From the NCBI RefSeq assembly GCF_000013905.1, contig NC_007968.1, positions 9,222 through 41,221 of the forward strand: a stretch of 32,000 bases of DNA, given 5' to 3'. Position numbers and translations under genes: made by a program. This document shows positions 4,077 to 24,270 of the stretch, piece by piece (the first letter of the stretch is position 1; every line of letters begins with the position of its first letter). Source of the stretch: Psychrobacter cryohalolentis K5. GTDB lineage: Bacteria > Pseudomonadota > Gammaproteobacteria > Pseudomonadales > Moraxellaceae. The notes under the pieces are model-generated. The model was not told where the DNA came from, searched no databases, and worked only from the letters and a program-made list of their open reading frames with translations.

Positions 4077-4532
4077 CTAAGATTTATCATTTTTTAGCAG
4101 TTGCTCCGCTATTCTTTCTTCCCATTCAGTTTTAGAAAGACGACCTGTATTTTGCATCTTTATATCTTTTAAAACCTTATGATGAGCATCAAGGTGGTTA
4201 ATCATATTGATAATATTATTTTGCTGACGCTTTGTTTCAGCGAGCTTTTGGGTAATAACACTCAATTGTTTATCAACATCAATCGTGCCATCGTAATAAT
4301 CATTCAGGAATTCTTTAAATTCATTCAGATTAAACCCGATGGCTTGCGCACTCTTAATCATTTCAATACGCTCAACACATTCTGGATGAAATTCAGTGTA
4401 CAGTCTTGAGCCTGCTTGGCATTTGCGAGATTTCAATAATCCCATTTCATAGTAATGGCGAACCGTATCTTTGGTGGTGTTAGCTTGCGCTGCTAACGCC
4501 CCTATTAATAAAAAAGATGAGTGTGACGGCAT
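4077..4532 (-). CDS. MerR-family transcriptional regulator
   Basis: ATG 4532 is preceded by GGAGG (4540-4544 on the minus strand), so the ORF-track TTG at 4547 is rejected. N-terminal MerR HTH (LLIGALAAQANTTKDTVRHYYEMGLL) and a coiled-coil C-terminus. Confidence 0.85.
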   Translation of the reverse strand: MPSHSSFLLIGALAAQANTTKDTVRHYYEMGLLKSRKCQAGSRLYTEFHPECVERIEMIKSAQAIGFNLNEFKEFLNDYYDGTIDVDKQLSVITQKLAETKRQQNNIINMINHLDAHHKVLKDIKMQNTGRLSKTEWEERIAEQLLKNDKS

Positions 4533-4604
4533 AGCATAACCTCCCAAAAATGAACTTCATTTAGCTTTTACTCTTATGACCTATGTAGAAGCACTATAGA
4601 TAAA

Positions 4605-5051
4605 TTATTCAGCTAACATTACTTCTAGCTTGGGTTTAATAATAAGTGACACAATAACTGAAAACACGATGCCGATCGGTAAGGCTGCCAGTAAAGTGGT
4701 AGCCCAAACAGCAGCAAGAGAGTTCCAATCAGAGAAACCATTGGTGTTAATGGTAGTAATCACTGCCATAATGGATTCCATTGTCACTGCCATACATAAG
4801 CCAAAAATAACGTTCATTTTAACTTTTGAGATATTGGGCAATATTGCCGCTAAAGCTTTATGAATCAGCATGGCAATAATGCCACCAATGGGTGCAATGA
4901 AAACCACGCATAGCGCAAAAGAGCTTATCCAAGACGCTAAAAACCTCTCATTAAACTCTATACTTTTCCAGGTCATGACAAAAGTGAGTGTGCCACCAAT
5001 AACGATGACTATGCTGAGAATGATACCTATTTTTTTAAGAAGTTTAGGCAC
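4605..5051 (-). CDS. Small integral membrane protein (DUF2798-like, 4 TM)
   Basis: 148-aa ORF with four hydrophobic segments, lying immediately upstream of the MerR gene on the same strand. The family call is from memory of MerR-linked DUF2798 proteins. Confidence 0.55.
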   Translation of the reverse strand: MPKLLKKIGIILSIVIVIGGTLTFVMTWKSIEFNERFLASWISSFALCVVFIAPIGGIIAMLIHKALAAILPNISKVKMNVIFGLCMAVTMESIMAVITTINTNGFSDWNSLAAVWATTLLAALPIGIVFSVIVSLIIKPKLEVMLAE

Positions 5052-5286
5052 TGGACTATCCGTACTAGATGAAGGGCAGGTAGTCTAAGCTTATTTTTTC
5101 GATAAGTGCAGTCTTGTTCTTCAAGATTTTTTCTGTACAAACAACAGAAACGAGTAGAGCAGAAGGTAAGATGGAAAAATACCTCATCTAGAGATTTTAT
5201 AGTTATTAAACTCATATCTAACACTAGCAATTCGATACCTGTATAGCGCACCGATCACAAACAGAATATGTTAGGTACACTACGAA

Positions 5287-5364
5287 GTACACTGTGACTA
5301 TTTAAGTGCGCAAAACCATTGATACCATTAGCTTACAGCCGAAGATTCAAGTCCTCACTAGGGA
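5287..5364 (+). repeat. 78-bp element, copy A; inverted partner at 24343-24420
   Basis: The outer 8 bp (GTACACTG) and the inner 41 bp (36/41 identical, the last 19 bp TTCAAGTCCTCACTAGGGA perfect) are shared with the reverse complement of 24343-24420. The 29-bp middle is unrelated but of equal length. Confidence 0.9.
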
Positions 5365-5828
5365 ACCGAACCAGTGAAATTGGTTTGTCATAGGCATACT
5401 TACAATAGATTATAGTGCAATGGGAAGATAGAACTAAGACAATTAAAGAGCTGATTAAAGAACTCCAAAGTTTTGAGGATCAAAACTTGATTGTTATGAT
5501 AACTAATGATGAAGGTGAAACATTTAACTCGGTAAAGTTGGTTAGCAAAGGGTTTGTAGCTAATAAAGATGATCCTGATAAATATAAGAAAATTTATTGT
5601 GCTTTACACTTCTAAGCTTTAAGACCATCTAAGACAGTTAGTTAGTTTTTTAATCCCTAAACCCATGAAAATCGGTTGGGGGGTGATTTTTTTGCCGTGT
5701 GCAGAGAAAAGCAAGTCAAAGATTTTTTTTACTAGCTGCTTTAGCGATAACCATTATTTAAGATAATCTCGTTAAAGCAGCTATGACCTAACCTTTAAAT
5801 GTTAAAAGTTAAGGGTAAATTTGAAAAA

Positions 5829-7742: not shown

Positions 7743-8624
7743 TTAAAGCTTACCTAGTTTCTTATGATTATAATAAGTTCTTCTCGAAATACCTAAGTCT
7801 TCCCAAGGCTTCATAGATTGCTCTGACGTAGCTATAGGCTTACGTTTAGATACCTTACCGCCTTTACTACCCTTAAGTGCCTGCCGATAAATAAACTCAT
7901 TATAGTGATAAGCATCACGCTTCCAACAGTATTTAGCAATGCTTTTTGCAGTAGCCTTGATTTCTGAGTACGGTAACGGCTCTGAAAACATCATATTCAC
8001 GCTTTGAGCGTGCTTAAGTACTGAACTGTACCATTGATCCCAAGTCTTGCCTCGATGCTCTCTAATGGCAGAATAAGCCCAATGGCGAACGGTATCGAAC
8101 AGGGAGCAGTTCCTTCCAAGCCCATATTCTTTCTCGTTAGACGTTAAAGGTCTGAGATCTACGAACTCCGCAAGATAATTTAGCTCATAGGCTTCTTTCG
8201 TCCATACTTCGGTACGCCAATGTTCGTGCAGGGGGTTTTTGGTGATGAAATTGGTATAACCAACGTCTGCGCGACTTGCTCTGACAAGCCCTGCTTGTAT
8301 CTTAGCGAGATAATCTAAGGCTTTACGACTGCCATGCTCACTGGTACAAACAGGCGTTTTTAGCTCATAGACGATATGGGCGTGTCCGTTTGAGGGGTTT
8401 TGGCTTGTCCACCGTGGCGGTGGTAGGTATTCTTCTGCCCATCGCATAGCGCCATGCTCATGATCAATGTCTAAGCAGATAAAATGAGTCATGCAAGGGG
8501 GGTTGTGCTGGATGTACCGCATTTTGACGGCAGTTTGCCTAGGACGAATGACAAGATTACCTAAACCATCGGTGCAATAGGGCTTGTAGGGGAGTGTTTC
8601 GTATATTTCCGGTAGTAATAACAT
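7743..8624 (-). CDS. rep: ColE2/pAL5000-type replication initiator (primase-like Rep, Replicase family)
   Basis: LPYKPYCT, NGHAHIVYEL, YGLGRN, KSIAKY and KPWEDLGISRRTYY align with the ColE2 Rep sequence as I remember it. The ATG at 8624 gives 293 aa, close to the size I recall for ColE2 Rep. The ORF track extends to a GTG at 8699. Confidence 0.85.
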   Translation of the reverse strand: MLLLPEIYETLPYKPYCTDGLGNLVIRPRQTAVKMRYIQHNPPCMTHFICLDIDHEHGAMRWAEEYLPPPRWTSQNPSNGHAHIVYELKTPVCTSEHGSRKALDYLAKIQAGLVRASRADVGYTNFITKNPLHEHWRTEVWTKEAYELNYLAEFVDLRPLTSNEKEYGLGRNCSLFDTVRHWAYSAIREHRGKTWDQWYSSVLKHAQSVNMMFSEPLPYSEIKATAKSIAKYCWKRDAYHYNEFIYRQALKGSKGGKVSKRKPIATSEQSMKPWEDLGISRRTYYNHKKLGKL

Positions 8625-8713
8625 CACGCACACTTGTATTGGTGCGCCTGCTGATATAAAATGTCCGTATCGAAAAATGGGTTTTATATCTGCTGACACA
8701 GATTAAAATTCAT

Positions 8714-11194: not shown

Positions 11195-11241
11195 ATGAGT
11201 ATATACTCATTTGAGTAAAAACTTATATGAGTATATACTCA
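11195..11241. promoter_or_regulatory. parA operator / centromere-like palindromes
   Basis: Two copies of the 14-bp perfect palindrome TGAGTATATACTCA at 11196-11209 and 11228-11241, just upstream of the parA ATG. Confidence 0.7.
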
Positions 11242-12110: not shown

Positions 12111-12367
12111 ATAAAATATGTCGCGAGCCACTGTTTGATTTTGTGTATGTATTTATCTAAATGGCAGTTACACAGAGTTCAGGATGGTTTCTCTAAGAGA
12201 GCAGCGCCAAGAGCAGTTGACGTTACAACGGCTAGCAGTAAAAATTGATATATCTGATAAAGATATAGAAATTTAATCATTATTTTTACCTGTTAGAATC
12301 ATGTTTCTTATTATATCCATGTATGTCGACATACCTAATATACATCTTTGACTAGATTAGAGTATTT

Positions 12368-13378
12368 ATGAGCAATTTAATAAAAAGTATTAGAATAAAA
12401 AGATTGTTTGATGAAAAAGACGTTAGTTGGGAACTAAAAAAAATTAATGTCTTAGTTGGTAAGAATGGATTGGGTAAATCTACTATTCTTAGGTTGATAA
12501 ATGCTGCCGTCACTTTAAAACAAGTTGAAGACTTAAATTTATGTGAAGAAGTAAGCGTAGTAATGAAAGATGAAGAAAAATACACTTCGAAAAAAAATAA
12601 TTTAATAGATATTGAGATGTTAAAATTAGTTATAGAGGAGCTATCAAGGTTTGAAAAAAATTCTAGGAAAGATAAAAATTCAGATAGCCATTATGTAAAA
12701 TATAAAAGATTAAGCAATGATGAACTAAAAGAATTAACGACAGATTTGTTCAAAAAAATAAATAAAAATGCAACTAACTATGAAATAGAGGATAATGATA
12801 AGAAATTAAATATCAAAAGAGATAATCAAGTTTTTAAACCTAAAAAAAAGATGCCTGTAGAGTTTATATCTACGATAAATATGAGTGCGAACTCAGTAAA
12901 TAACGTTATTGAGAGTGACGGAAATAAGACAACTTTTTTAGACGTAGAGATTGATAAGGAAGTAGAAAGACTAAATAAGGATCATAGAAACAAAGATGAA
13001 CTACAAGAAAAGTTTATGAGTTCGTTAAACAATTTTTTTGAAGAAACCAACAAAAAAGTAGAGTTTGTAGACGATAAGATAGAAATACTACTAATTAGTG
13101 GAAAGAGAATAGACTATCGCAACTTATCTTCTGGAGAAAGGCAGTTAATATTTATATTCCTAAAAATAATAAATGGCGGCGTTGATAACTCATTGATATT
13201 AATGGATGAACCAGAAATATCATTACATCTTTCATGGCAAGAAAAACTATTAACAGAGATCACAAATGCTAATAGCTCAAGCCAGATGATAATAGTAACT
13301 CATAGCCCAGCTCTAGTTATGGACGGTTGGCTAGACAACTTCATAGACATAAAAACCATAACAGAAGAAGTGTGGTGA
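12368..13378 (+). CDS. ABC/AAA_21-type ATPase (AriA-like)
   Basis: Walker A GKNGLGKST (12458-12484), ABC signature LSSGERQ, Walker B LILMDEPE, H-loop IIVTHSP. Very AT-rich coding sequence. Confidence 0.85.
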   Translation: MSNLIKSIRIKRLFDEKDVSWELKKINVLVGKNGLGKSTILRLINAAVTLKQVEDLNLCEEVSVVMKDEEKYTSKKNNLIDIEMLKLVIEELSRFEKNSRKDKNSDSHYVKYKRLSNDELKELTTDLFKKINKNATNYEIEDNDKKLNIKRDNQVFKPKKKMPVEFISTINMSANSVNNVIESDGNKTTFLDVEIDKEVERLNKDHRNKDELQEKFMSSLNNFFEETNKKVEFVDDKIEILLISGKRIDYRNLSSGERQLIFIFLKIINGGVDNSLILMDEPEISLHLSWQEKLLTEITNANSSSQMIIVTHSPALVMDGWLDNFIDIKTITEEVW

Positions 13379-13383
13379 GCGAC

Positions 13384-14370
13384 ATGTCAGAGTTTCATGA
13401 CTTCTTTACTAGTAAAAATTTTATTGGCGCTTATAACGTTTTTTCATCTGGAGATATTAAAGATAAAAATAAAGGGATTATTTATGTTGAAGATGCCTCT
13501 GATTACTCATTTTGGGAAGGGTTTATTGGCTATCATTACCCAAATGAATATATGTGCCGCCCTTCTTCAAAAGAAGGTAAAACAGTAACTGGCAAGAGGT
13601 TTTTAGAGAAAATATATAAAGATGCTAATGAAAAGATAATAATCGCAGTTGATAGTGACTATGACTACATTGCTTCTAAGGTACAAGAAGACCACATATT
13701 CAATCATAATAAATATGTTATCCATACTCATGGATTTAGTAGAGAGAGTGTCCAGATTGAAAAAGATAGTTTAGATCATTTTTTCAAGCTATGTAGGTTA
13801 ACTATCCCTAACACCGTTAACTTATCAAGCTTCTTAAATGATTTCTCTGAAATAGCTTTTAAAGGACTGGCTAAATATATTGTTATTCTCAATAGAATTG
13901 ATTACAGCAATATATATGATAGCGAATTCAATTCATGTTTCCATCTTCTTGATGAAAACATGGTTGATGAGAACTTACTAATCAGCAAATCCGGTATTGA
14001 AAAAATAGAGAAGAAAATGGACTTATTCTTCGATGATAAATGCATCTACGAAGACGATATAATAAAATCAGAATATTTCTTAAATGATATAGGAATTAAT
14101 AGGGATAATGCTTATAGGTTTATATCAGGTCATGTTCTTTTTGACTTAATCAAAAAAATACATAAAATAAATTTATCTCAGCTAATGAAACACGAGATAA
14201 AGAATATCAATAAGAATGTAACTGGAAATGAAATAAAAGACAGGGTTAATCAAGTAAAGACTCGGTTTAATGACTCCTTTAGCTTTGATACTTACTGTCA
14301 TATGCGTCAAGTAGATCTTGAAGATGAAGTCCATAAGTTCATACTCTCAGCCATTAAAAATATTAAATGA
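13384..14370 (+). CDS. DUF4435/TOPRIM (OLD-type) nuclease-like protein (AriB-like)
   Basis: The ATG at 13384 lies 5 nt after the ATPase stop. TOPRIM-like IIYVED (Glu codon 13489-13491) and AVDSDYD (DxD at 13651-13659), about 54 residues apart. The ATPase + DUF4435 pairing is the PARIS architecture. Confidence 0.7.
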   Translation: MSEFHDFFTSKNFIGAYNVFSSGDIKDKNKGIIYVEDASDYSFWEGFIGYHYPNEYMCRPSSKEGKTVTGKRFLEKIYKDANEKIIIAVDSDYDYIASKVQEDHIFNHNKYVIHTHGFSRESVQIEKDSLDHFFKLCRLTIPNTVNLSSFLNDFSEIAFKGLAKYIVILNRIDYSNIYDSEFNSCFHLLDENMVDENLLISKSGIEKIEKKMDLFFDDKCIYEDDIIKSEYFLNDIGINRDNAYRFISGHVLFDLIKKIHKINLSQLMKHEIKNINKNVTGNEIKDRVNQVKTRFNDSFSFDTYCHMRQVDLEDEVHKFILSAIKNIK

Positions 14371-14529
14371 TAAGTATCAAGTTACTCATACTGTAAATAG
14401 TCTTTGATAGGACGTTTTTTGAACTTTGAGGCGTCTTTTTGGGAGCTTCCTAAGCATTTTATAAGTGAGTGTCTAGGCTGAGTGTACACCTACATGGATT
14501 TCAGGATACTATCGACTATTCATATTTGA

Positions 14530-14826
14530 CTAATGATCTAACAAATACTCTTCTAGCGCATCGTTAATCATATCTTGGTAGTTTCCGCCGGTCTTTTTAG
14601 CCCTATCCTGGAATCTAGCAATGATACTAGGACTCACGCTACTGGCACCGACCATAGAATCACTTGGCACTACGCTGCCACGGGTCGCACTCGACCAGTC
14701 CGTCACTTCAGGCATATCAGACAAATCAATATCATGATCTAAAAGTACCGCCAATCGTTGCAAGTTTGCTTCTTGCGCAGCGCTTAAAGACGGTAACTCA
14801 TTTGCTTTATAGCTAACCTTGTTCAT
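14530..14826 (-). CDS. brnA: BrnA-family antitoxin (CopG/RHH C-terminus)
   Basis: 98 aa from ATG 14826 (GGAGG upstream). LQRLAVLLDHDIDLSDMPEVTDW and the C-terminal GGNYQDMINDALEEYL are BrnA-like. Confidence 0.8.
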   Translation of the reverse strand: MNKVSYKANELPSLSAAQEANLQRLAVLLDHDIDLSDMPEVTDWSSATRGSVVPSDSMVGASSVSPSIIARFQDRAKKTGGNYQDMINDALEEYLLDH

Positions 14827-15197
14827 AAAACCTCCTTTCAACCTTAGTGGCAGGTCGTGCTGATATGATACGAATAACCTCACCACCCTCACCATCTCTT
14901 TGAGTATGAGCAACAAAGTGCTTGAAAAAACAGTAAATGAAGCGAGAAAACAGTAAATGAAGCGAGAAAACAGCAAATGAAGCGAGAAAACAGTCCTCAA
15001 AAAAATATTGTTTTAGGGACTTTTAATAATTATTTCACCGCACTAAGCGCTTGCTACCGCTCTTCACCGTTTTCATATCGGTCTTGTTGACGCAAACACA
15101 AAGGATCAAAAAATACCCGAGCTGCTTCTTCAAAGCATAAGCCATGTTTGCGTTGATTACTGCTATTTTTCTGTTCATCCCATTCAAATTCAATCAT
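14813..15197 (-). pseudogene. brnT: brnT (DUF497 toxin) pseudogene: nonsense codon plus repeat-containing insertion
   Basis: From ATG 15197: MIEFEWDEQKNSSNQRKHGLCFEEAARVFFDPLCLRQQDRYENGEER, then TAG at 15056-15054, where the family has Trp. The C-terminal fragment HFVAHTQRDGEGGEVIRIISARPATKVERRFYEQG ends at 14813 and overlaps the brnA start. About 110 bp of foreign sequence, including the 3 x 20-bp repeats, lies in between. Confidence 0.8.
14931..14990. repeat. 20-bp tandem repeat x3 (CAGTAAATGAAGCGAGAAAA; the third copy has 1 mismatch)
   Basis: Read directly from the sequence. Located inside the disrupted brnT. Confidence 0.95.
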
Positions 15198-15394
15198 TGA
15201 TCACCGTCTTCAAGCGTATTGGTACTAGGCATTGTCTGGTAATCAAAAGACAGCGGTATGCTATTGGTTTCTGCTACCTGATGCAAAAATAACTTAATCG
15301 CCTGAGAAGGCGTTAAACCATAGCCTTCAAGCACCGAAAACGCCTTGTCTTTTAATTCTTGATCGAGACGGATATTATAATTGGTTGTGCTCAT
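15194..15394 (-). CDS. RelB/DinJ-family antitoxin
   Basis: 66 aa. NIRLDQELKDKAFSVLEGYGLTPSQAIKLFLHQV is the DinJ/RelB RHH signature. Its stop overlaps the brnT ATG (ATGA). Confidence 0.85.
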   Translation of the reverse strand: MSTTNYNIRLDQELKDKAFSVLEGYGLTPSQAIKLFLHQVAETNSIPLSFDYQTMPSTNTLEDGDQ

Positions 15395-15398
15395 AGCA

Positions 15399-15442
15399 TT
15401 ACTTATCGCTTATTTATGTACCGTCAATATAAGCGATAAGTA
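15399..15442. promoter_or_regulatory. Operator-like inverted repeat upstream of the DinJ-family gene
   Basis: Perfect 15-bp arms, TTACTTATCGCTTAT (15399-15413) and ATAAGCGATAAGTAA (15428-15442), starting 5 bp upstream of the start codon. Confidence 0.6.
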
Positions 15443-15495
15443 ACGTCAATTCAATAATTTTAGGGCTTTGGTTTTTTACGAACAATAATAATATG

Positions 15496-15756
15496 CTACT
15501 CATTCAATTCATGCAGAAAATTATCAATTCTCTGTTTTAGCTGTTTTTGTATGACGTAGAGTTCGCTCGCGCTACATTCTCTTAGCATACTTTCCTCATC
15601 TTTTAGCTCAAACATCTTTTTACGTATGCTATCGCTATGGGCTTCGTTTTCTAAACCAAAGGTGTTAAGACGCCCCATTTGACGGTAGTATTCTCGTTGT
15701 GCCTCTTCAAACATCATGAAATGGTTACTTGCTACTGATACACCTCGAATACTCAT
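15496..15756 (-). CDS. Hypothetical protein (86 aa, helical/acidic)
   Basis: ORF with GGAG upstream (AAAGGAGCAATCTATG on the minus strand). No recognisable motif. Confidence 0.5.
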   Translation of the reverse strand: MSIRGVSVASNHFMMFEEAQREYYRQMGRLNTFGLENEAHSDSIRKKMFELKDEESMLRECSASELYVIQKQLKQRIDNFLHELNE

Positions 15757-16686: not shown

Positions 16687-17061
16687 ATGAGCACCCCTAT
16701 CGTATCATTTAGATTAAAGCCAGAAATCTACCTAAAACTAGAAGCGATAGCCGCAGAAGCAGGGCAAACGCCTGGTGGCTACTTGAAGAAAAAATTGGAG
16801 TCAGATACCAATAACTTTCTTGAAGATCTTCAGTTTATGAAAGGAGATATTAGTGAGATTCTGCACTTATTGCAGTCAGACGATAAAGGATCAAAGGCAG
16901 TAGAGAGCACATCAAATCAGAATGAGATGATGAAGGCTTTGATGCCGATAGTGCTAGAATCGTTATTGATATTAAGAGAGGTAGCAGCCCCTAATAAGGT
17001 TTCCAATGCTCAAAGATTGGTCGATAAAGCAGGAATAAAAGCATACAATAGTTTGGATTAA
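16687..17061 (+). CDS. Ribbon-helix-helix protein (MobC-type relaxosome accessory or ParR-like)
   Basis: The N-terminal IVSFRLKPEIYLKLEAIAAEAGQTPGGYLKKKL shows an RHH pattern. Followed by a strong terminator. Confidence 0.6.
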   Translation: MSTPIVSFRLKPEIYLKLEAIAAEAGQTPGGYLKKKLESDTNNFLEDLQFMKGDISEILHLLQSDDKGSKAVESTSNQNEMMKALMPIVLESLLILREVAAPNKVSNAQRLVDKAGIKAYNSLD

Positions 17062-17077
17062 CAATTAAATGTATATT

Positions 17078-17110
17078 GCCCTTGTATCAGCTGATACAAG
17101 GGCTTTTTTT
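17078..17110 (+). terminator. Rho-independent terminator
   Basis: The GCCCTTGTATCAG/CTGATACAAGGGC 13-bp stem followed by a T7 run. Confidence 0.85.
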
Positions 17111-17637: not shown

Positions 17638-17702
17638 AATTATTTTATTTGTGTAGCTTTATAGAGTATAGTACTTATATTGTTTACTATAGAGAGTATA
17701 AA

Positions 17703-18650
17703 ATGAGTAATAAGCAGTTAATTGCTAAAGACAATAAGTTAATCGGTGCTAGCTACTCTCTTGGTATACCCGAACAGCGTCTTATTTTCTTAGCAATTAT
17801 TGAAGCAAGAGAACAAAAACAATTGATTGATGCTAAAGGTGTTCTGAACATTAGAGCAAAGAGCTATCAAGAACAATTTAAGGTAGAAAAACATACTTCA
17901 TACGATGCATTGAAAAGTGCTACAAGTGGTTTATTTGATGCTCATTTTGAGTATGAAGATATTCATGAAAAAACAGGAAAACAGGCTCGCCATGTCATTA
18001 GATGGGTACAAAAAATAAGCTACATTGATGACGCTGGTATGGTTGAGCTGCAATTTACAGATGCAGTTATTCCGCTAATAACAAGACTTAGCGAGCAATA
18101 CACAGAATATGAGTTAAAACAGGTTAGCGAATTGCAAAGCGAATACTCAATCAGGCTTTATGAGTTAATGATGCAATGGAAGGCAGTTGGTAAAACTAAC
18201 AAGATATCAGTTGACGATCTACGTAGGAAATTAGGTGTTGAGCCCAAGCAATATAAGAAAATGAATAACTTCAAGGCACGAGTTCTAGACCATGCTATTA
18301 ATCAAATAAATGAACATACAGATATTCAAGCTGAGTATGATCAGTATAAAGATGGACGTGCAATTGCAGGCTTTACATTTAAATTTAAAGTGAAGAAAAA
18401 CAAAGTGAAAATTGCTGCCAAAGTTGAAGCTGATAACGTCGACAGGTCTACCATTGAAGGGCTAAACGATAAGCAGTTAGGGCGTATTGCTCGCAATCCT
18501 AGTTTTATAGCAGACTATAATGATTTAGTTAGTTCGACTAGCCCAGCTGGTCAAGATATGAATATGTGGGAATTAGAGATGATTAATCGCCTTAAGAAAG
18601 ACATTTCTCAATTTAAGAAACGTCCAATTAGAGAGTATCTTGAATACTAA
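17703..18650 (+). CDS. rep: Rep_3-family (iteron-binding) replication initiator
   Basis: Starts MSNKQLIAKDNKLIGASYSLGIPEQRLIFLAI, the canonical Rep_3 N-terminus, followed by YSIRLYELMMQW. Located next to the iterons. Confidence 0.9.
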   Translation: MSNKQLIAKDNKLIGASYSLGIPEQRLIFLAIIEAREQKQLIDAKGVLNIRAKSYQEQFKVEKHTSYDALKSATSGLFDAHFEYEDIHEKTGKQARHVIRWVQKISYIDDAGMVELQFTDAVIPLITRLSEQYTEYELKQVSELQSEYSIRLYELMMQWKAVGKTNKISVDDLRRKLGVEPKQYKKMNNFKARVLDHAINQINEHTDIQAEYDQYKDGRAIAGFTFKFKVKKNKVKIAAKVEADNVDRSTIEGLNDKQLGRIARNPSFIADYNDLVSSTSPAGQDMNMWELEMINRLKKDISQFKKRPIREYLEY

Positions 18651-18809: not shown

Positions 18810-19937
18810 ATGACAGACTTAAATAAAGAAATTGATAAAGCAAGACACAATGTTCGAACAGATAGCTATTCTATGTCTATAGGCGAACTCGCTAGTATGT
18901 ACGAAGATAATGAACTAGAAATACATCCGGCTTTTCAAAGAGTTTTTCGATGGAGTGATGAGCAAAAGAGTAATTTTATAGAATCTATATTCTTAGGTAT
19001 TCCAATCCCTTCTATATTTGTTTCTCAGCGCCAAGATGGCGTTTGGGATTTAGTGGACGGCCTTCAAAGATTATCAACCATTTTCTCTTTTATGAATAAA
19101 CTGAAGGATGAAGAAGGAAGTATTAGAGACCCATTCACTCCTGAGGCAACTAAGTATCTACCATCTCTTAAAGGAAGAAAGTGGGGAACAGAAGATTTAG
19201 ACTCTGCCGACTTACTATCGAACAATCTCAAACTCTTGTTCAAAAGACAAAAGATAGCTGTAAATATTATAGAACGTGAAAGTGACGATGATGCTAAGTT
19301 CGAGCTATTTCAGCGGTTAAACACGGGAGGATCTGCTTTATCTCCACAAGAGGTCAGAAACTGTTTATTGATAATGTTAAACAATCAGGCTTTTGATTTT
19401 ATTCAGGCTTTAACTAAAGATGAATCATTTCAAAAAACAGTCCTTGTTACAGAGGCGAAGGAAGATCAAGCATATTATTATGAACTCGTATTGAGGTTCT
19501 TTATTAACAGACATGCATCTGATGAAATACGATCAAAGCATAGTGATGTACATCCTTATCTTAACAATGAAACAATCCGATTATTTGATATTAACTCAGA
19601 TTTTGAATACAACAAAGAAAGAGAGGTGTTCAAAAATACTTTTGAGCGTATAGCTCTTGCCCTAGGAGATGATGCGTTTAAAAAATACAACCCTCAAAAA
19701 GATAGATATGAGGGGGCTTTTAGCTTACCTGTGTTTGAGGCTATATCTACAGGCATATCGTTCCTAGTAGAAAGCGATGATTATAATGAGGATGCTATAG
19801 TTGTAGTTATAGCAGCTAAGACAAAAGAGCTTATAGATAATAATGATTTTACAAACTCTTATGCTACTCGGATTAGACCTATAGACAGAACTAAGATAAT
19901 GATTGGTATAGGTCGGAGTTTGTTTTGTGAGGATTAG
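18810..19937 (+). CDS. DUF262 (ParB-like/GmrSD N-terminal) domain protein lacking a DUF1524 nuclease half
   Basis: IHPAFQRVFRWSDEQKSNFIESIFLGIPIPSIFV and WDLVDGLQRLSTI (DGLQR at 19056-19070). I see no H-N-H/His-Me pattern in the C-terminal 200 aa. Confidence 0.8.
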   Translation: MTDLNKEIDKARHNVRTDSYSMSIGELASMYEDNELEIHPAFQRVFRWSDEQKSNFIESIFLGIPIPSIFVSQRQDGVWDLVDGLQRLSTIFSFMNKLKDEEGSIRDPFTPEATKYLPSLKGRKWGTEDLDSADLLSNNLKLLFKRQKIAVNIIERESDDDAKFELFQRLNTGGSALSPQEVRNCLLIMLNNQAFDFIQALTKDESFQKTVLVTEAKEDQAYYYELVLRFFINRHASDEIRSKHSDVHPYLNNETIRLFDINSDFEYNKEREVFKNTFERIALALGDDAFKKYNPQKDRYEGAFSLPVFEAISTGISFLVESDDYNEDAIVVVIAAKTKELIDNNDFTNSYATRIRPIDRTKIMIGIGRSLFCED

Positions 19938-20577
19938 AAATCTTGAACAACTGGAAAAATCGATGGTTAGCGACTTAACTTGGCGTAGACGAGAGCTGAC
20001 TACATTGAAGTTCATGATTCAGGAAAATAGCGCTATCCATAAGAAAAATATATTACACAGAGCTGCTATAGCCTTATTGTATTCACATTGGGAAGGACAT
20101 GTTAAACATTGCTCTTTAGTTTATTTGAGTTATCTAAATAGCTTGGGTCTTCACTGTGATCAGATAGCAGATAACTTTATACAACTAAATCTAAGCTCTT
20201 ATTTTGATGTAAATCTTTCAATGAAATCTACAAAGAATCAAAAGGCCATCCATGATTACTTTTCTCGTTTGTCTGATGTTACGTTCAAAGTTGTAGAGAA
20301 TAAAACAATAGACACTAAGTCGAATTTAAACTCTGAGGTTCTTTTAAATATACTCTCGCAATTGGGCCTTCCGAGTAATGAATTTGAGTTGAAGAGTACG
20401 TTGATAGACACAGTTTTGCTAAAAAATAGAAATGCTGTGGTTCATGGAGAGATGTTGAATGCTGATGGCTTGAGAAATACATATAATGAAATAGAAGATG
20501 ATTTATTGTATTTGATCGAAACATTCCATAATCTTGTTAACAGTGCGGCAGCTAATGGTCTCTATCTAAAACAGTAG
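19927..20577 (+). CDS. HEPN-domain protein (RiboL-PSP / MAE_28990-like), predicted RNase
   Basis: GTG start with GGAG 8 nt upstream, overlapping the DUF262 gene by 11 nt. R-x4-H motif RNAVVH at 20428-20445, followed by GE. N-terminal DLTWRRRELTTLK helix. Confidence 0.7.
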   Translation: MRIRNLEQLEKSMVSDLTWRRRELTTLKFMIQENSAIHKKNILHRAAIALLYSHWEGHVKHCSLVYLSYLNSLGLHCDQIADNFIQLNLSSYFDVNLSMKSTKNQKAIHDYFSRLSDVTFKVVENKTIDTKSNLNSEVLLNILSQLGLPSNEFELKSTLIDTVLLKNRNAVVHGEMLNADGLRNTYNEIEDDLLYLIETFHNLVNSAAANGLYLKQ

Positions 20578-20591
20578 CTATCTTTTCAAAT

Positions 20592-21542
20592 CTATGGGGA
20601 GTAAGGACCAAGAAACCTTACTCCATTAAAATGAATGAGATGAGAAGGAGCATCCGCTACCCAAACTTCTGTTTCCCATGCAATTTCACTAAGATAACGA
20701 CCCATTAGAGCTCTATTCGGAAAAGCTGTCACATAAACTAGCCCAGCAGTTGATTCTGAAAACAACTTAGAAAGCTCTTCATATCTTTTTCCGTCAACAG
20801 GTCCATGGCTAGTGACAGACTCAACTAATAACAGCCAGTTTTTTTCAGTGTAGTGCAATACGACGTCAGGCATTTTACCGTGTGAACCTACATCCACATT
20901 CAGTTCTTTCAGTAGCTCTTTGTCAAAATACCCCCACTTTTTCTCTGTGTCACCGGCATAAATCAAGATACTATTTGGTGCAAAACGTTCTGCAAAATCT
21001 TCAATAATATCTTTGATAAGCTCGCTATGAATACCAGGACTCAATGTAATTTCTTTACCATCTGCAATTCTTACAGGAATACGATTTTGCTCTCGCTCTT
21101 TAGCATAACGCTCAACAAGCGATGTACGATCAGCTAAATAGCGTTCTAGGTGGCTGTGCCATGATGTAGTCCCATAAGTGCGAAGCAGGGTCAATACGTG
21201 AGGTTCGATTTGATAAACGGCCTTTGGACTATTGACGGGTCGGTCTGGCTTATCTGGATTATAAAGAGCTATACCTGCATCACAAAACTGATGCATTGTT
21301 TGGCGACGAACTGTTTCCCGTGTGTTAGGAGCATAATCTTTACTGTAATGCTCACGGGCCCAATTCATGATAGGTGTAATTCCCATTAACGGGCTTTTTA
21401 CTTGTGTCCAGCTCTTACCTGGAGAAAGGTCTAGAAGAGCTAATAAAGTTAAGGCTGAGCGTTCATTATATTGTGCAGTAGGTAGACCTAAGCAAGCTAT
21501 AATTTGTAGAGCTGCCTCAATGTGATCATCTTGTGTATTCAT
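20592..21542 (-). CDS. Type II restriction endonuclease, BsuBI/PstI family
   Basis: LGLPTAQYNERSALTLLALLDL...GITPIMNWAREHYSKDYAPNTRETVRRQTMHQF...PDRPVNSPKAVYQIEP matches the BsuBI/PstI N-terminal domain as I recall it. The start overlaps the methylase stop (TAATG). Confidence 0.8.
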   Translation of the reverse strand: MNTQDDHIEAALQIIACLGLPTAQYNERSALTLLALLDLSPGKSWTQVKSPLMGITPIMNWAREHYSKDYAPNTRETVRRQTMHQFCDAGIALYNPDKPDRPVNSPKAVYQIEPHVLTLLRTYGTTSWHSHLERYLADRTSLVERYAKEREQNRIPVRIADGKEITLSPGIHSELIKDIIEDFAERFAPNSILIYAGDTEKKWGYFDKELLKELNVDVGSHGKMPDVVLHYTEKNWLLLVESVTSHGPVDGKRYEELSKLFSESTAGLVYVTAFPNRALMGRYLSEIAWETEVWVADAPSHLIHFNGVRFLGPYSP

Positions 21543-23008
21543 TAAATTAAATCTCTAAATTGAGCATCAATGCTCTCTTGTGTGATATTTTTTTGTTCTA
21601 AAGCCCACTCACCAAGCTTAAATAAATTTTCACGGCTAGGGTACTTCATCTGCTTAAGATCTGTTGCATTGACCTGAGTATGACCACTAAACCGCCTAAA
21701 ATGCTCATCTACTGCGGTAGTGTTCAGGTATACCATAAGTCCACTTGCTAATGCCTCAGGCAAGCCGTTTTTATTGTCGTGGAATACGTTTAAGTGGTTT
21801 TCAAACCCCAGCATCGTGTATTCGCTAAAATCAGTAGGGTTTATCAAGTTTGCAACCATACGACGTTTTTCCTCCTTCGACGAAAAACGTTTCACTACAC
21901 AGTAAAATCCGTTAGGGTAAAGCCATTTCTCTGTATCGTTATTGGCTACGATTGCATTAGATTTTTTAAAGTTAGGTATAGGCCAAGTGGTTTTATATGC
22001 CTTTAAGTGGGCTGGATAAATCAATGGCACAGCCCCTTCTTCAGGCCTATCTCGTAAATACTCTTTCAATCGGAAATCAACTACTGGGCCAGTTGATAGC
22101 TTTATACCAATGTCAGCCATTGAATAACGCACAGCAGATGATAATTCGATGGCACTTTTCTCGGTCGTAGTCTGCACGTGAATAAACCGTTCTGGATCAT
22201 CTGGAAATACTATGCGCTCAAAAGGAATTTCACAGTTAGTTAGGTCAGAAAAACTATCGTCAGTAGAGGTTGAGATAGTAACAGGTCCTTGCTTTCCATC
22301 ACGTTCTAAGCAAATAATGATATTCTCTTGTAGTACCTGATCATCGCTAAAAGCTTTGCTGCGCGATTCAAACAAATGCATCTGATGTATCGCTGCCCGT
22401 TCAAGAATGAAGTCGCGGAAAGGGCGATAATAAGGGCCATTGCAGAAACTGCGTGGAATAATAGCTACCATTTGGCCACCTGGAGCCATCTCTCCCAGCG
22501 CTAATGCTATAAAAGCGGAATATAAATTAACTGTTTCAATACCAACACTACTTAAAGCTAATCGGTGCGCTGATTTACTATTGATTTTTTTATAAGGTGG
22601 ATTCAGAATTACGTGAGTGTAACCTTGATCCTGCAGACCTTTGTCTGTTGCCAGTTTGATGTAATCGTCAGAGAAAATACGAGTTGTCACATGATCGTAT
22701 GAGTTTAGATGCTGACTAAGATAGTTCGTCAGTTTCTTATCGATTTCGAAAGCGGTTACATCAACATCATTAAACCCAAACCCATTGGCCTTCCAACGAT
22801 CAAGGAACGCGCAGGTTAAAGTACCTATTCCTGCGCCTGCGTCTAATAAGCGACAGGTTTTAATATTGCTAGGTGGAAAAAGAGATGCCATAAATCGAGC
22901 TACACTTGAAGGCGTCATAAACTGCCCCAGCTCAGCTTTATGTTTTTGCGTGGTACGACGCGCTAATTTAAGGCGCACACTATCTGCAGTGTCTAACTGT
23001 TGGAGCAT
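21542..23008 (-). CDS. N6-adenine DNA methyltransferase (Eco57I/BsuBI-PstI methylase type)
   Basis: GQFMTPSSVARFMA, motif I LDAGAGIGTL, motif IV NPPY (22603-22592). Confidence 0.88.
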   Translation of the reverse strand: MLQQLDTADSVRLKLARRTTQKHKAELGQFMTPSSVARFMASLFPPSNIKTCRLLDAGAGIGTLTCAFLDRWKANGFGFNDVDVTAFEIDKKLTNYLSQHLNSYDHVTTRIFSDDYIKLATDKGLQDQGYTHVILNPPYKKINSKSAHRLALSSVGIETVNLYSAFIALALGEMAPGGQMVAIIPRSFCNGPYYRPFRDFILERAAIHQMHLFESRSKAFSDDQVLQENIIICLERDGKQGPVTISTSTDDSFSDLTNCEIPFERIVFPDDPERFIHVQTTTEKSAIELSSAVRYSMADIGIKLSTGPVVDFRLKEYLRDRPEEGAVPLIYPAHLKAYKTTWPIPNFKKSNAIVANNDTEKWLYPNGFYCVVKRFSSKEEKRRMVANLINPTDFSEYTMLGFENHLNVFHDNKNGLPEALASGLMVYLNTTAVDEHFRRFSGHTQVNATDLKQMKYPSRENLFKLGEWALEQKNITQESIDAQFRDLI

Positions 23009-24241: not shown

Positions 24242-24270
24242 AAAAAAAGCCCCCAGCTGGGGGCTTTTTC
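24242..24270. terminator. Bidirectional rho-independent terminator
   Basis: AAAAAAAGCCCCCAGCTGGGGGCTTTTTC. Confidence 0.8.

Follow-up and report, generated by a model that had tools for sequence, protein, structure and literature searches.

The closest described relative of the locus analyzed here is the PARIS system of Escherichia coli B185, which is borne by a P4 satellite and for which a set of structures is available (PDB 8UX9 and 8V45-8V49). This system combines the ABC ATPase AriA with the DUF4435/TOPRIM nuclease AriB. The catalytic motifs of E. coli AriA include Walker A (K39), Walker B (D392/E393), the signature motif and the H-loop, and the acidic residues of E. coli AriB are E26, D30, D88, E90 and E122 (PMC11464382, PMC10802264); the AriB helix with K60 and K64 holds the tRNA anticodon loop (PMC12409363). 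The four-helix bundle located between the two ATPase lobes of AriA forms the coiled-coil (CC) interface of the hexamer and is involved in the binding of Ocr, with R212, R213, R244, R345 and R346 as the Ocr-binding residues (PMC10802264), and the trigger-binding regions differ between clades according to Burman et al. (PMC11464382). A pair of adjacent genes from Psychrobacter cryohalolentis K5, ORF1 (ariA-like) and ORF2 (ariB-like), located in a 32,000-nucleotide (nt) stretch of contig NC_007968.1 (positions 9,222 to 41,221; hereafter, the window), is very probably a compact, plasmid-borne representative of this family.

Assignment of the gene pair

The window is 100% identical to the plasmid record NZ_CP022042.2 (P. 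cryohalolentis FDAARGOS_308 plasmid unnamed1; 41,221 bp, circular), with window positions equal to the positions in that record minus 7776. The preliminary description of this DNA, made from the sequence without database searches, reported a two-gene islet that encodes a 336-aa ATPase and, 5 nt further on, a 328-aa protein with TOPRIM-like motifs. Both genes are found as described, on the same strand (Table 1), together with every motif that was quoted, namely, GKNGLGKST, LSSGERQ, LILMDEPE and VTHSP (starting at amino acids 31, 253, 276 and 310 of ORF1, respectively) and IIYVED and AVDSDYD (amino acids 32 and 88 of ORF2). With identical coordinates, the RefSeq annotation lists the two products as WP_011512346.1, "AAA family ATPase", and WP_011512347.1, "DUF4435 domain-containing protein".

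Table 1. The gene pair and the associated elements of the cassette (window positions)
Feature	Position	Strand	Remarks
mobA 3' remnant, last 28 codons (...LREQRQEQLTLQRLAVKIDISDKDIEI, then stop)	12193..12276	+	left cassette edge
Promoter/leader region of the operon, conserved, 91 nt	12277..12367	+	mismatches to cassette copies: 2 (L012), 3 (L009), 9 (L006)
14-bp perfect palindrome GTATGTCGACATAC	12321..12334		7 nt past the -10-like hexamer, 33 nt before the ATG
ORF1, ariA-like	12368..13378	+	336 aa; compact ABC ATPase
ORF2, ariB-like	13384..14370	+	328 aa; DUF4435-family, N-terminal TOPRIM domain, C-terminal helical domain
3' tail of the cassette	14371..14440	+	common only to the closest copy, L012

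A search of the PADLOC models with ORF1 identifies the AriA model PDLC04164 as the best match, with an E-value of 2e-39, and two further AriA models with E-values of 2.6e-22 and 1e-21; many PtuA models also match at about 1e-22. The PARIS detection rule of Rousset 2022 defines AriA by a match to AAA_15 (at least 32 bits) or AAA_21 (at least 27 bits) (PMC9122126), and ORF1 exceeds both thresholds, with Pfam scores of 69.4 and 66.0 bits, respectively. The PDB sequence search started with ORF1 retrieves E. coli AriA (8V45, 8UX9) first, with an E-value of 5.6e-19, and the next family at 3e-7, so that AriA leads by 12 orders of magnitude. An hhalign comparison of a profile of 28 ORF1 family sequences with E. 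coli AriA yields a probability of 98.9%, and the C-lobes of the two ATPases are about 39% identical over 113 columns. A Foldseek search with the AlphaFold2 (AF2) model of ORF1 points in the same direction: ranks 1 to 16 are all occupied by AriA chains (E-values down to 1.8e-15), and PtuA structures follow as the next-best fold matches. The predicted catalytic residues of ORF1, i.e., Walker A K37, the signature LSSGERQ at 253-259, Walker B D280-E281 and H-loop H312, are invariant in the 28 homologues and align with those of E. coli AriA.

For ORF2, the only PADLOC models that match are those of AriB, PDLC04165 with 81.5 bits (1.7e-23) and PDLC02983 with 50.3 bits (7.9e-14). The AF2 model of this protein, with a predicted local distance difference test (pLDDT) score of 89.2, is of the alpha/beta type in its N-terminal domain and helical in its C-terminal one, and the sole notable match in a Foldseek search of the PDB is AriB 8ux9_A (E-value 2.7e-3, probability 1.0), with the next hit at an E-value of 0.7. 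Five acidic residues of the TOPRIM domain that are predicted to bind metal, E36, D40, D90, D92 and E121, show no variation among 21 close homologues or among 40 diverse homologues, with sequence identity down to 18%, and agree with the E. coli AriB set in order and spacing. The first two of these are paired with AriB E26/D30 by hhalign, in alignments that are not significant overall, and the last glutamate lies in a T-x-G-x-S-x-E context in both ORF2 and E. coli-type AriB. Another invariant residue, K71, is located past the first and before the second acidic motif, in a short helix (71-76), and, by spacing only, might be the counterpart of the K60/K64 helix of AriB.

The kind of system is already known, and the RefSeq annotation and the PADLOC models both point to it; in the literature searched, no paper mentions this locus or characterizes the clade of compact ATPases to which it belongs. 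The matches of both proteins to the AriA and AriB models of PADLOC, the best PDB match of ORF1 to AriA, the Foldseek matches to AriA and AriB, and the invariant TOPRIM acidic residues bear out the PARIS-type assignment that the preliminary description had proposed. These observations are best compatible with the pair being a PARIS-family (class 4 OLD-like) ariA-ariB abortive-infection module that is carried by a mobile cassette of about 2.2 kb, an assignment that can be made with considerable, if incomplete, confidence.

Cassette mobility, selection and distribution

The cassette (about 12193-14440) is present in seven independent contigs, with 86-96% DNA identity. The homology begins at 12192-12234 and ends at 14372-14440, with sharp edges; on the right side, it reaches 14440 in L012 and only 14372-14373 in L006-L011. 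In four of the seven contigs, all of them small metagenomic plasmids (L009-L012), an intact MobA/MobL relaxase gene is located directly before ariA. The flanks are different in L006, L007 and L008: in the first two, a RelB-like gene immediately precedes the cassette, and in L006 the cassette is followed by prfC. In the window, the left cassette edge retains a 3' remnant of mobA, the translation of which is nearly identical to the C-termini encoded by the intact mobA genes in L009 and L012, and upstream of position 12193 the frame is broken, the homology ends and nothing of the relaxase gene is left. Given this remnant and the intact mobA genes in the relatives, it can be concluded that the cassette reached the plasmid via recombination with a small mobilizable plasmid. 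The horizontal acquisition suggested in the preliminary description is accordingly well founded, considering that the cassette recurs, with sharply bounded homology, in three or more contexts unrelated to one another and that it carries the mobA remnant in the window. An empty site was not found in related Psychrobacter plasmids, in which the relatives of parA-parG show an identity of only about 79% and the junction is not shared.

Comparison with three cassette copies yields ratios of nonsynonymous to synonymous substitution rates (dN/dS) of 0.13-0.20 for both genes (0.13-0.15 for ORF2), which indicates that both genes are under purifying selection. Within ORF1, the ratio is 0.25-0.27 for the K/N/E-rich variable insert (amino acids 77-160) versus 0.06-0.08 for the C-terminal part.

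Beyond the cassette itself, the pair is conserved in Moraxellaceae and Enterobacteriaceae: it occurs in the chromosomes of Moraxella osloensis, where it is located beside pnp, and Acinetobacter gyllenbergii, and pairs of the same size are found on small plasmids, e.g., E. coli W pRK2, a 5.4-kb plasmid of E. coli SE11 and 4.4-kb ColE1-type plasmids of Klebsiella pneumoniae. The gene order is kept in the relatives, with gaps of 0-8 nt or overlaps. At an E-value of 1e-10 or lower, ORF1 has homologues in at least 2,817 clusters at 90% identity, the best 120 of which are all 291-357 aa long, and the ORF2 family includes 593 clusters at 50% identity. On sequence grounds, the pair belongs to a widespread compact PARIS clade. 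The suggestion in the preliminary description that the short ATPase might represent a divergent subtype holds with regard to the compactness of the protein, with the qualification that the compact form is that of a large clade and is not peculiar to this locus. The locus adds a plasmid-borne example from a cold environment to PARIS and points to a large clade of PARIS systems with short ATPases that travel on small mobilizable plasmids.

The compact ATPase and the predicted mechanism

By analogy with E. coli B185 (PMC11464382, PMC10802264, PMC12409363), the ATPase oligomer would dock the nuclease at the ATPase head-head interface, where it would remain an inactive monomer. Binding of a phage-encoded protein to the ATPase, together with ATP hydrolysis, would then release the nuclease, which would dimerize and cut specific host tRNAs, so that translation stops and the infection is aborted.

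Within this scheme, the ATPase is the part in which the Psychrobacter system departs from the solved one. The expectation that ORF1 is shorter than canonical AriA is correct: it consists of 336 aa, compared to 464 aa for the solved AriA, i.e., it is 128 aa shorter. Amino acids 23-76 of ORF1 align to AriA 25-79 and amino acids 201-328 to AriA 309-439, so that the segment between the ATPase lobes encompasses 124 aa in ORF1 versus 229 aa in E. coli AriA; in addition, the C-terminal tail is about 17 aa shorter. A 4-residue insertion of AriA that includes R345/R346 is absent from ORF1 in the alignment. When E. coli AriA is aligned with the ORF1 family by MAFFT, the residues missing from the middle region are not reliably placed. 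The AF2 model of ORF1 includes two confident short helices (190-227) beside the C-lobe.

In AriA, the part that is reduced in ORF1 is responsible both for hexamer formation and for binding of the one trigger that has been defined by structures. Because the inter-lobe segment is so much shorter and the R345/R346 insertion is lacking, the trigger of the Psychrobacter system is probably not Ocr; the likeliest candidate for a sensor surface is the fast-evolving insert at amino acids 77-160. A tentative possibility, which at present appears somewhat doubtful, is that the compact AriA clade is devoid of the four-helix bundle on which the propeller-shaped AriA6:AriB3 assembly and the Ocr-binding site of E. 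coli PARIS depend, forms a smaller complex held together by head-head contacts only (e.g., A2:B1) and responds to another class of triggers via this insert. If so, these proteins would represent PARIS in a minimal form, characteristic of small mobilizable plasmids and perhaps responsive not only to phage cues but also to cues linked to plasmids or conjugation. The compact clade also provides a natural minimal system for defining which features of PARIS are needed for the sequestering and release of AriB.

Weighing of the evidence and alternative interpretations

Several observations weigh against the PARIS assignment. ORF2 shows no match to Pfam DUF4435 (PF14491) at an E-value of 1 or lower; PDB searches with the single ORF2 sequence and with a HMMER profile of its family return noise and no solved AriB; hhalign comparisons of two ORF2 family profiles with E. 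coli-type AriB are not significant (E-values of 0.23 and 0.075); and the global superposition of ORF2 on AriB 8ux9_A is poor, with a TM-score of 0.38-0.40. In ORF1, about 105 inter-lobe residues are missing relative to E. coli AriA, and because of this loss the compact proteins may not form a 6:3 assembly or follow the same mode of release; the AF2 model of the variable insert contains two helices of low confidence, 82-100 and 117-136 (pLDDT 31-52, unreliable). Finally, no DNA or protein relatives of the pair were found in the phage collections searched.

The first of these points concerns the AriB criterion in PARIS detection, which is a match to DUF4435 (PF14491) with at least 27 bits. ORF2 has no usable match in Pfam and NCBIfam by which it could be named, and the absence of a DUF4435/TOPRIM hit, which the preliminary description regarded as telling against its proposal, is indeed observed with Pfam; this result is uninformative. 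The Pfam criterion appears to be insensitive rather than disqualifying because the E. coli-type AriB of a P4-like satellite (L013) has no Pfam match either, and because DUF4435 is matched by 11 of the 21 close homologues of ORF2, with a best E-value of 7.3e-17. Detection of PARIS with the current Pfam DUF4435 model therefore under-calls, missing both ORF2 and E. coli-type AriB, both of which are matched by PDLC02983 (50.3 bits for ORF2 versus 34.7 bits for the satellite protein). In the same satellite locus (E. coli GCA_050920405.1, L013 3126-5442), ariA contains a stop codon and a frameshift that disrupt it, and the adjacent ariB (4516-5439, 308 aa) is intact.

Several features of the genomic context would fit a role of the pair mainly as a plasmid-addiction module, similar to toxin-antitoxin (TA) systems, in which ORF1 would restrain a toxic ORF2, so that cells losing the plasmid would die or be arrested; such a role would be compatible with phage defense. 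The pair sits between a parA-parG partition module and TA modules (brnT-like and RelB/DinJ), and its relatives are cargo of small mobilizable plasmids, located beside mobA in L009-L012 and present on E. coli W pRK2 and the Klebsiella ColE1-type plasmids; furthermore, Deep et al. term AriA and AriB an antitoxin and a toxin (PMC10802264). The existence of chromosomal members, such as the Moraxella pair beside pnp, speaks against addiction as the main function, which is best regarded as a minority reading with a small but real chance of being correct.

The low sequence similarity between ORF2 and the solved AriB raises another question, namely, whether the pair might be a different OLD-like ATPase plus TOPRIM system, AbiL/RloAB-like or unnamed, that acts on DNA or on another non-tRNA substrate and forms a non-PARIS assembly. 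The compact ATPase without much of the inter-lobe region would agree with such a system, as would the matches of ORF1 to the PtuA, NsnB, mad3 and ATPase-Toprim models of PADLOC at 1e-15 to 1e-23, and structurally distinct ATPase plus TOPRIM systems have been noted by Deep et al. (PMC10802264). However, among the PADLOC models ORF2 matches those of AriB alone, with no match to AbiLii/RloB, Toprim_Old, GajA or AbiL, and it has no match to Pfam RloB (PF13707) or Toprim_Old (PF20469). In addition, the best matches of ORF1 both by sequence and by fold are AriA, with wide margins, and ORF2 outscores E. coli-type AriB on PDLC02983. Considering how the models and folds rank, the pair is unlikely to be a separate OLD-like system that acts on another substrate.

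That ORF1 is an ordinary nucleotide-binding subunit of an ABC transporter, next to ORF2 by chance, is effectively refuted: although Pfam ABC_tran scores 30.1 bits (cutoff 25) and there are many weak matches to NCBIfam transporter ATPases, the ABC_tran match falls into two parts separated by a 200-aa insertion, all NCBIfam scores are far below their cutoffs (the best is 41 versus 261 bits), no permease gene is adjacent to ORF1 or nearby, and the ORF1-ORF2 pairing is kept across genera.

Leader region and base composition

The 91-nt leader upstream of ORF1 is highly conserved among the closest cassette copies (Table 1). In the comparison with L009, 3 of its 91 positions differ, compared to 17 of the 65 four-fold degenerate sites of ORF2 (Fisher p=4e-5). 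Because the leader is far more conserved than synonymous sites, a regulatory role of the region is supported, and 12277-12367 can be considered a constrained, putative promoter or operator region; a role specific to the palindrome is not supported. A promoter-like sequence, TTTACC-18 nt-TATTAT, is present at 12285-12314, and the promoter scan count is no higher than in shuffled sequences.

The palindrome GTATGTCGACATAC to which the preliminary description drew attention is present upstream of ORF1, as claimed, and its occurrence does not exceed the chance expectation, which makes it weaker evidence than was implied: the window contains 5 perfect 14-bp palindromes versus 3.0 +/- 1.8 in composition-matched shuffles. 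The perfect form is specific to this copy, given that the center is CA (GTATGTCAACATAC) instead of CG in the three closest cassette copies, L012, L009 and L006, and the palindrome is absent upstream of distant family members. It is possibly a candidate operator; as evidence for a specific operator it was dropped, in view of its chance-level frequency, its imperfect form in relatives and its absence in distant ones. An RNA structure in the 5' untranslated region was rejected as well because the predicted fold of the leader is unremarkable (z=+0.59), and the window has no Rfam matches. Downstream of ORF2, no terminator was found on the + strand, and the fold z-score of -0.38 does not support an intrinsic terminator.

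The gene pair is AT-rich, with a GC content of 28.6% in ORF1, 29.9% in ORF2 and 28.9% in the span 12240-14400, compared to 37.8% in the whole window. No 2-kb stretch of the window is poorer in GC than this one, in agreement with the preliminary description, where its GC content was put at "well under 30%"; the actual value is just under 30%. The main deficit is at codon positions 1 and 2 (GC 0.37/0.23 in the pair versus about 0.50/0.35 in the neighbors), so the AT-richness largely reflects the K/N/I/E/D-rich composition of the two proteins. The GC content at third codon positions (GC3) is 0.26-0.28, near the 0.29-0.31 of the neighbors, and for this reason less weight was placed on GC content in the case for a foreign origin, of which low GC alone is weak evidence.

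Plasmid neighborhood

Other defense genes on the plasmid encode a PstI-like restriction-modification (RM) system, a DUF262/NsnA protein together with a HEPN protein, and a Fic/PDC-S24 protein. At 18810-20577, a DUF262 gene matches the PADLOC models NsnA (1e-61) and PD-T4-2_A (5e-31) and is followed, with an 11-nt overlap, by a gene for a HEPN-like nuclease that has no PADLOC match; the two form a second candidate defense pair, which is adjoined by the PstI-like type II RM system at 20592-23008. The 526-aa Fic-family protein encoded at 1596-3176 matches the PADLOC candidate family PDC-S24 (6e-176) and SoFic (2e-21).

To the right of the cassette, the region 14528-15500 contains TA modules, namely, a BrnT-like protein with its partner and a RelB/DinJ-like antitoxin (ORF 15194-15394). 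From position 14528, this region is 93% identical to several Psychrobacter plasmids, and it is partly unannotated in NZ_CP022042.2. To the left, the palindrome TGAGTATATACTCA occurs twice within 11195-11241 (at 11196 and 11228), 32 bp apart; the two copies overlap a listed TTG start (11211), lie about 13 bp before the RefSeq start of parA (11259) and are probably a partition operator or a centromere-like site.

Two different replication-initiator genes, Rep and RepM, are located at 7743-8699 and 17649-18650, respectively, with an IS982 transposase beside Rep, and the plasmid resembles a mosaic or cointegrate in which two replicons are combined. Two 16-bp perfect palindromes were detected elsewhere, TGTATCAGCTGATACA at 17083-17098, between the ORF 16687-17061 and repM, and GCCCCCAGCTGGGGGC at 24249-24264, in an intergenic location.

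Comparison with known systems

The Psychrobacter pair has the architecture of E. coli PARIS: an ABC ATPase gene is followed closely, in the same orientation, by a gene for a DUF4435/TOPRIM protein. The ATPase motifs (Walker A, Walker B, signature and H-loop) are shared, as is the set of five acidic TOPRIM residues, and in both systems the nuclease is composed of a TOPRIM and a helical domain. The Psychrobacter ATPase is shorter (336 versus 464 aa), with an inter-lobe segment of 124 versus 229 aa and without the R345/R346 insertion; the sequence similarity of ORF2 to E. coli AriB is not significant, and the fourth acidic residue is Asp in place of Glu; and the compact pair is found on plasmids and chromosomes of Moraxellaceae, whereas the E. 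coli systems reside on phages and satellites.

Among systems that combine an ABC ATPase with a separate or fused effector, Septu (PtuA/PtuB), retron-PtuAB, AbiL and Gabija/OLD share with this pair a Rad50/SMC-like ABC ATPase that serves as a sensor or scaffold. The partners are different: a DUF4435 TOPRIM protein in the present case versus an HNH protein in PtuB, RloB in AbiLii and a fused Toprim_Old domain in OLD/Gabija, effector families to which the pair shows no PADLOC or Pfam match. Unlike OLD class 1 and Gabija GajA, the pair consists of two genes and not of one fused polypeptide, and the matches to the ATPase-Toprim_I-B models of PADLOC cover only the ATPase part.

In architecture and size, the pair agrees with the AAA_21/AAA_15 plus DUF4435 pairs of enterobacteria, Acinetobacter and Moraxella, which consist of an ATPase of 325-335 aa and a partner of 325-337 aa, encoded by overlapping or nearly abutting genes, and which share the tie to mobilizable plasmids. 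ORF2 is only 24-28% identical to its counterparts in the enterobacterial compact pairs, and ORF1 is 42-46% identical to the ATPases of the Acinetobacter and Moraxella compact pairs.

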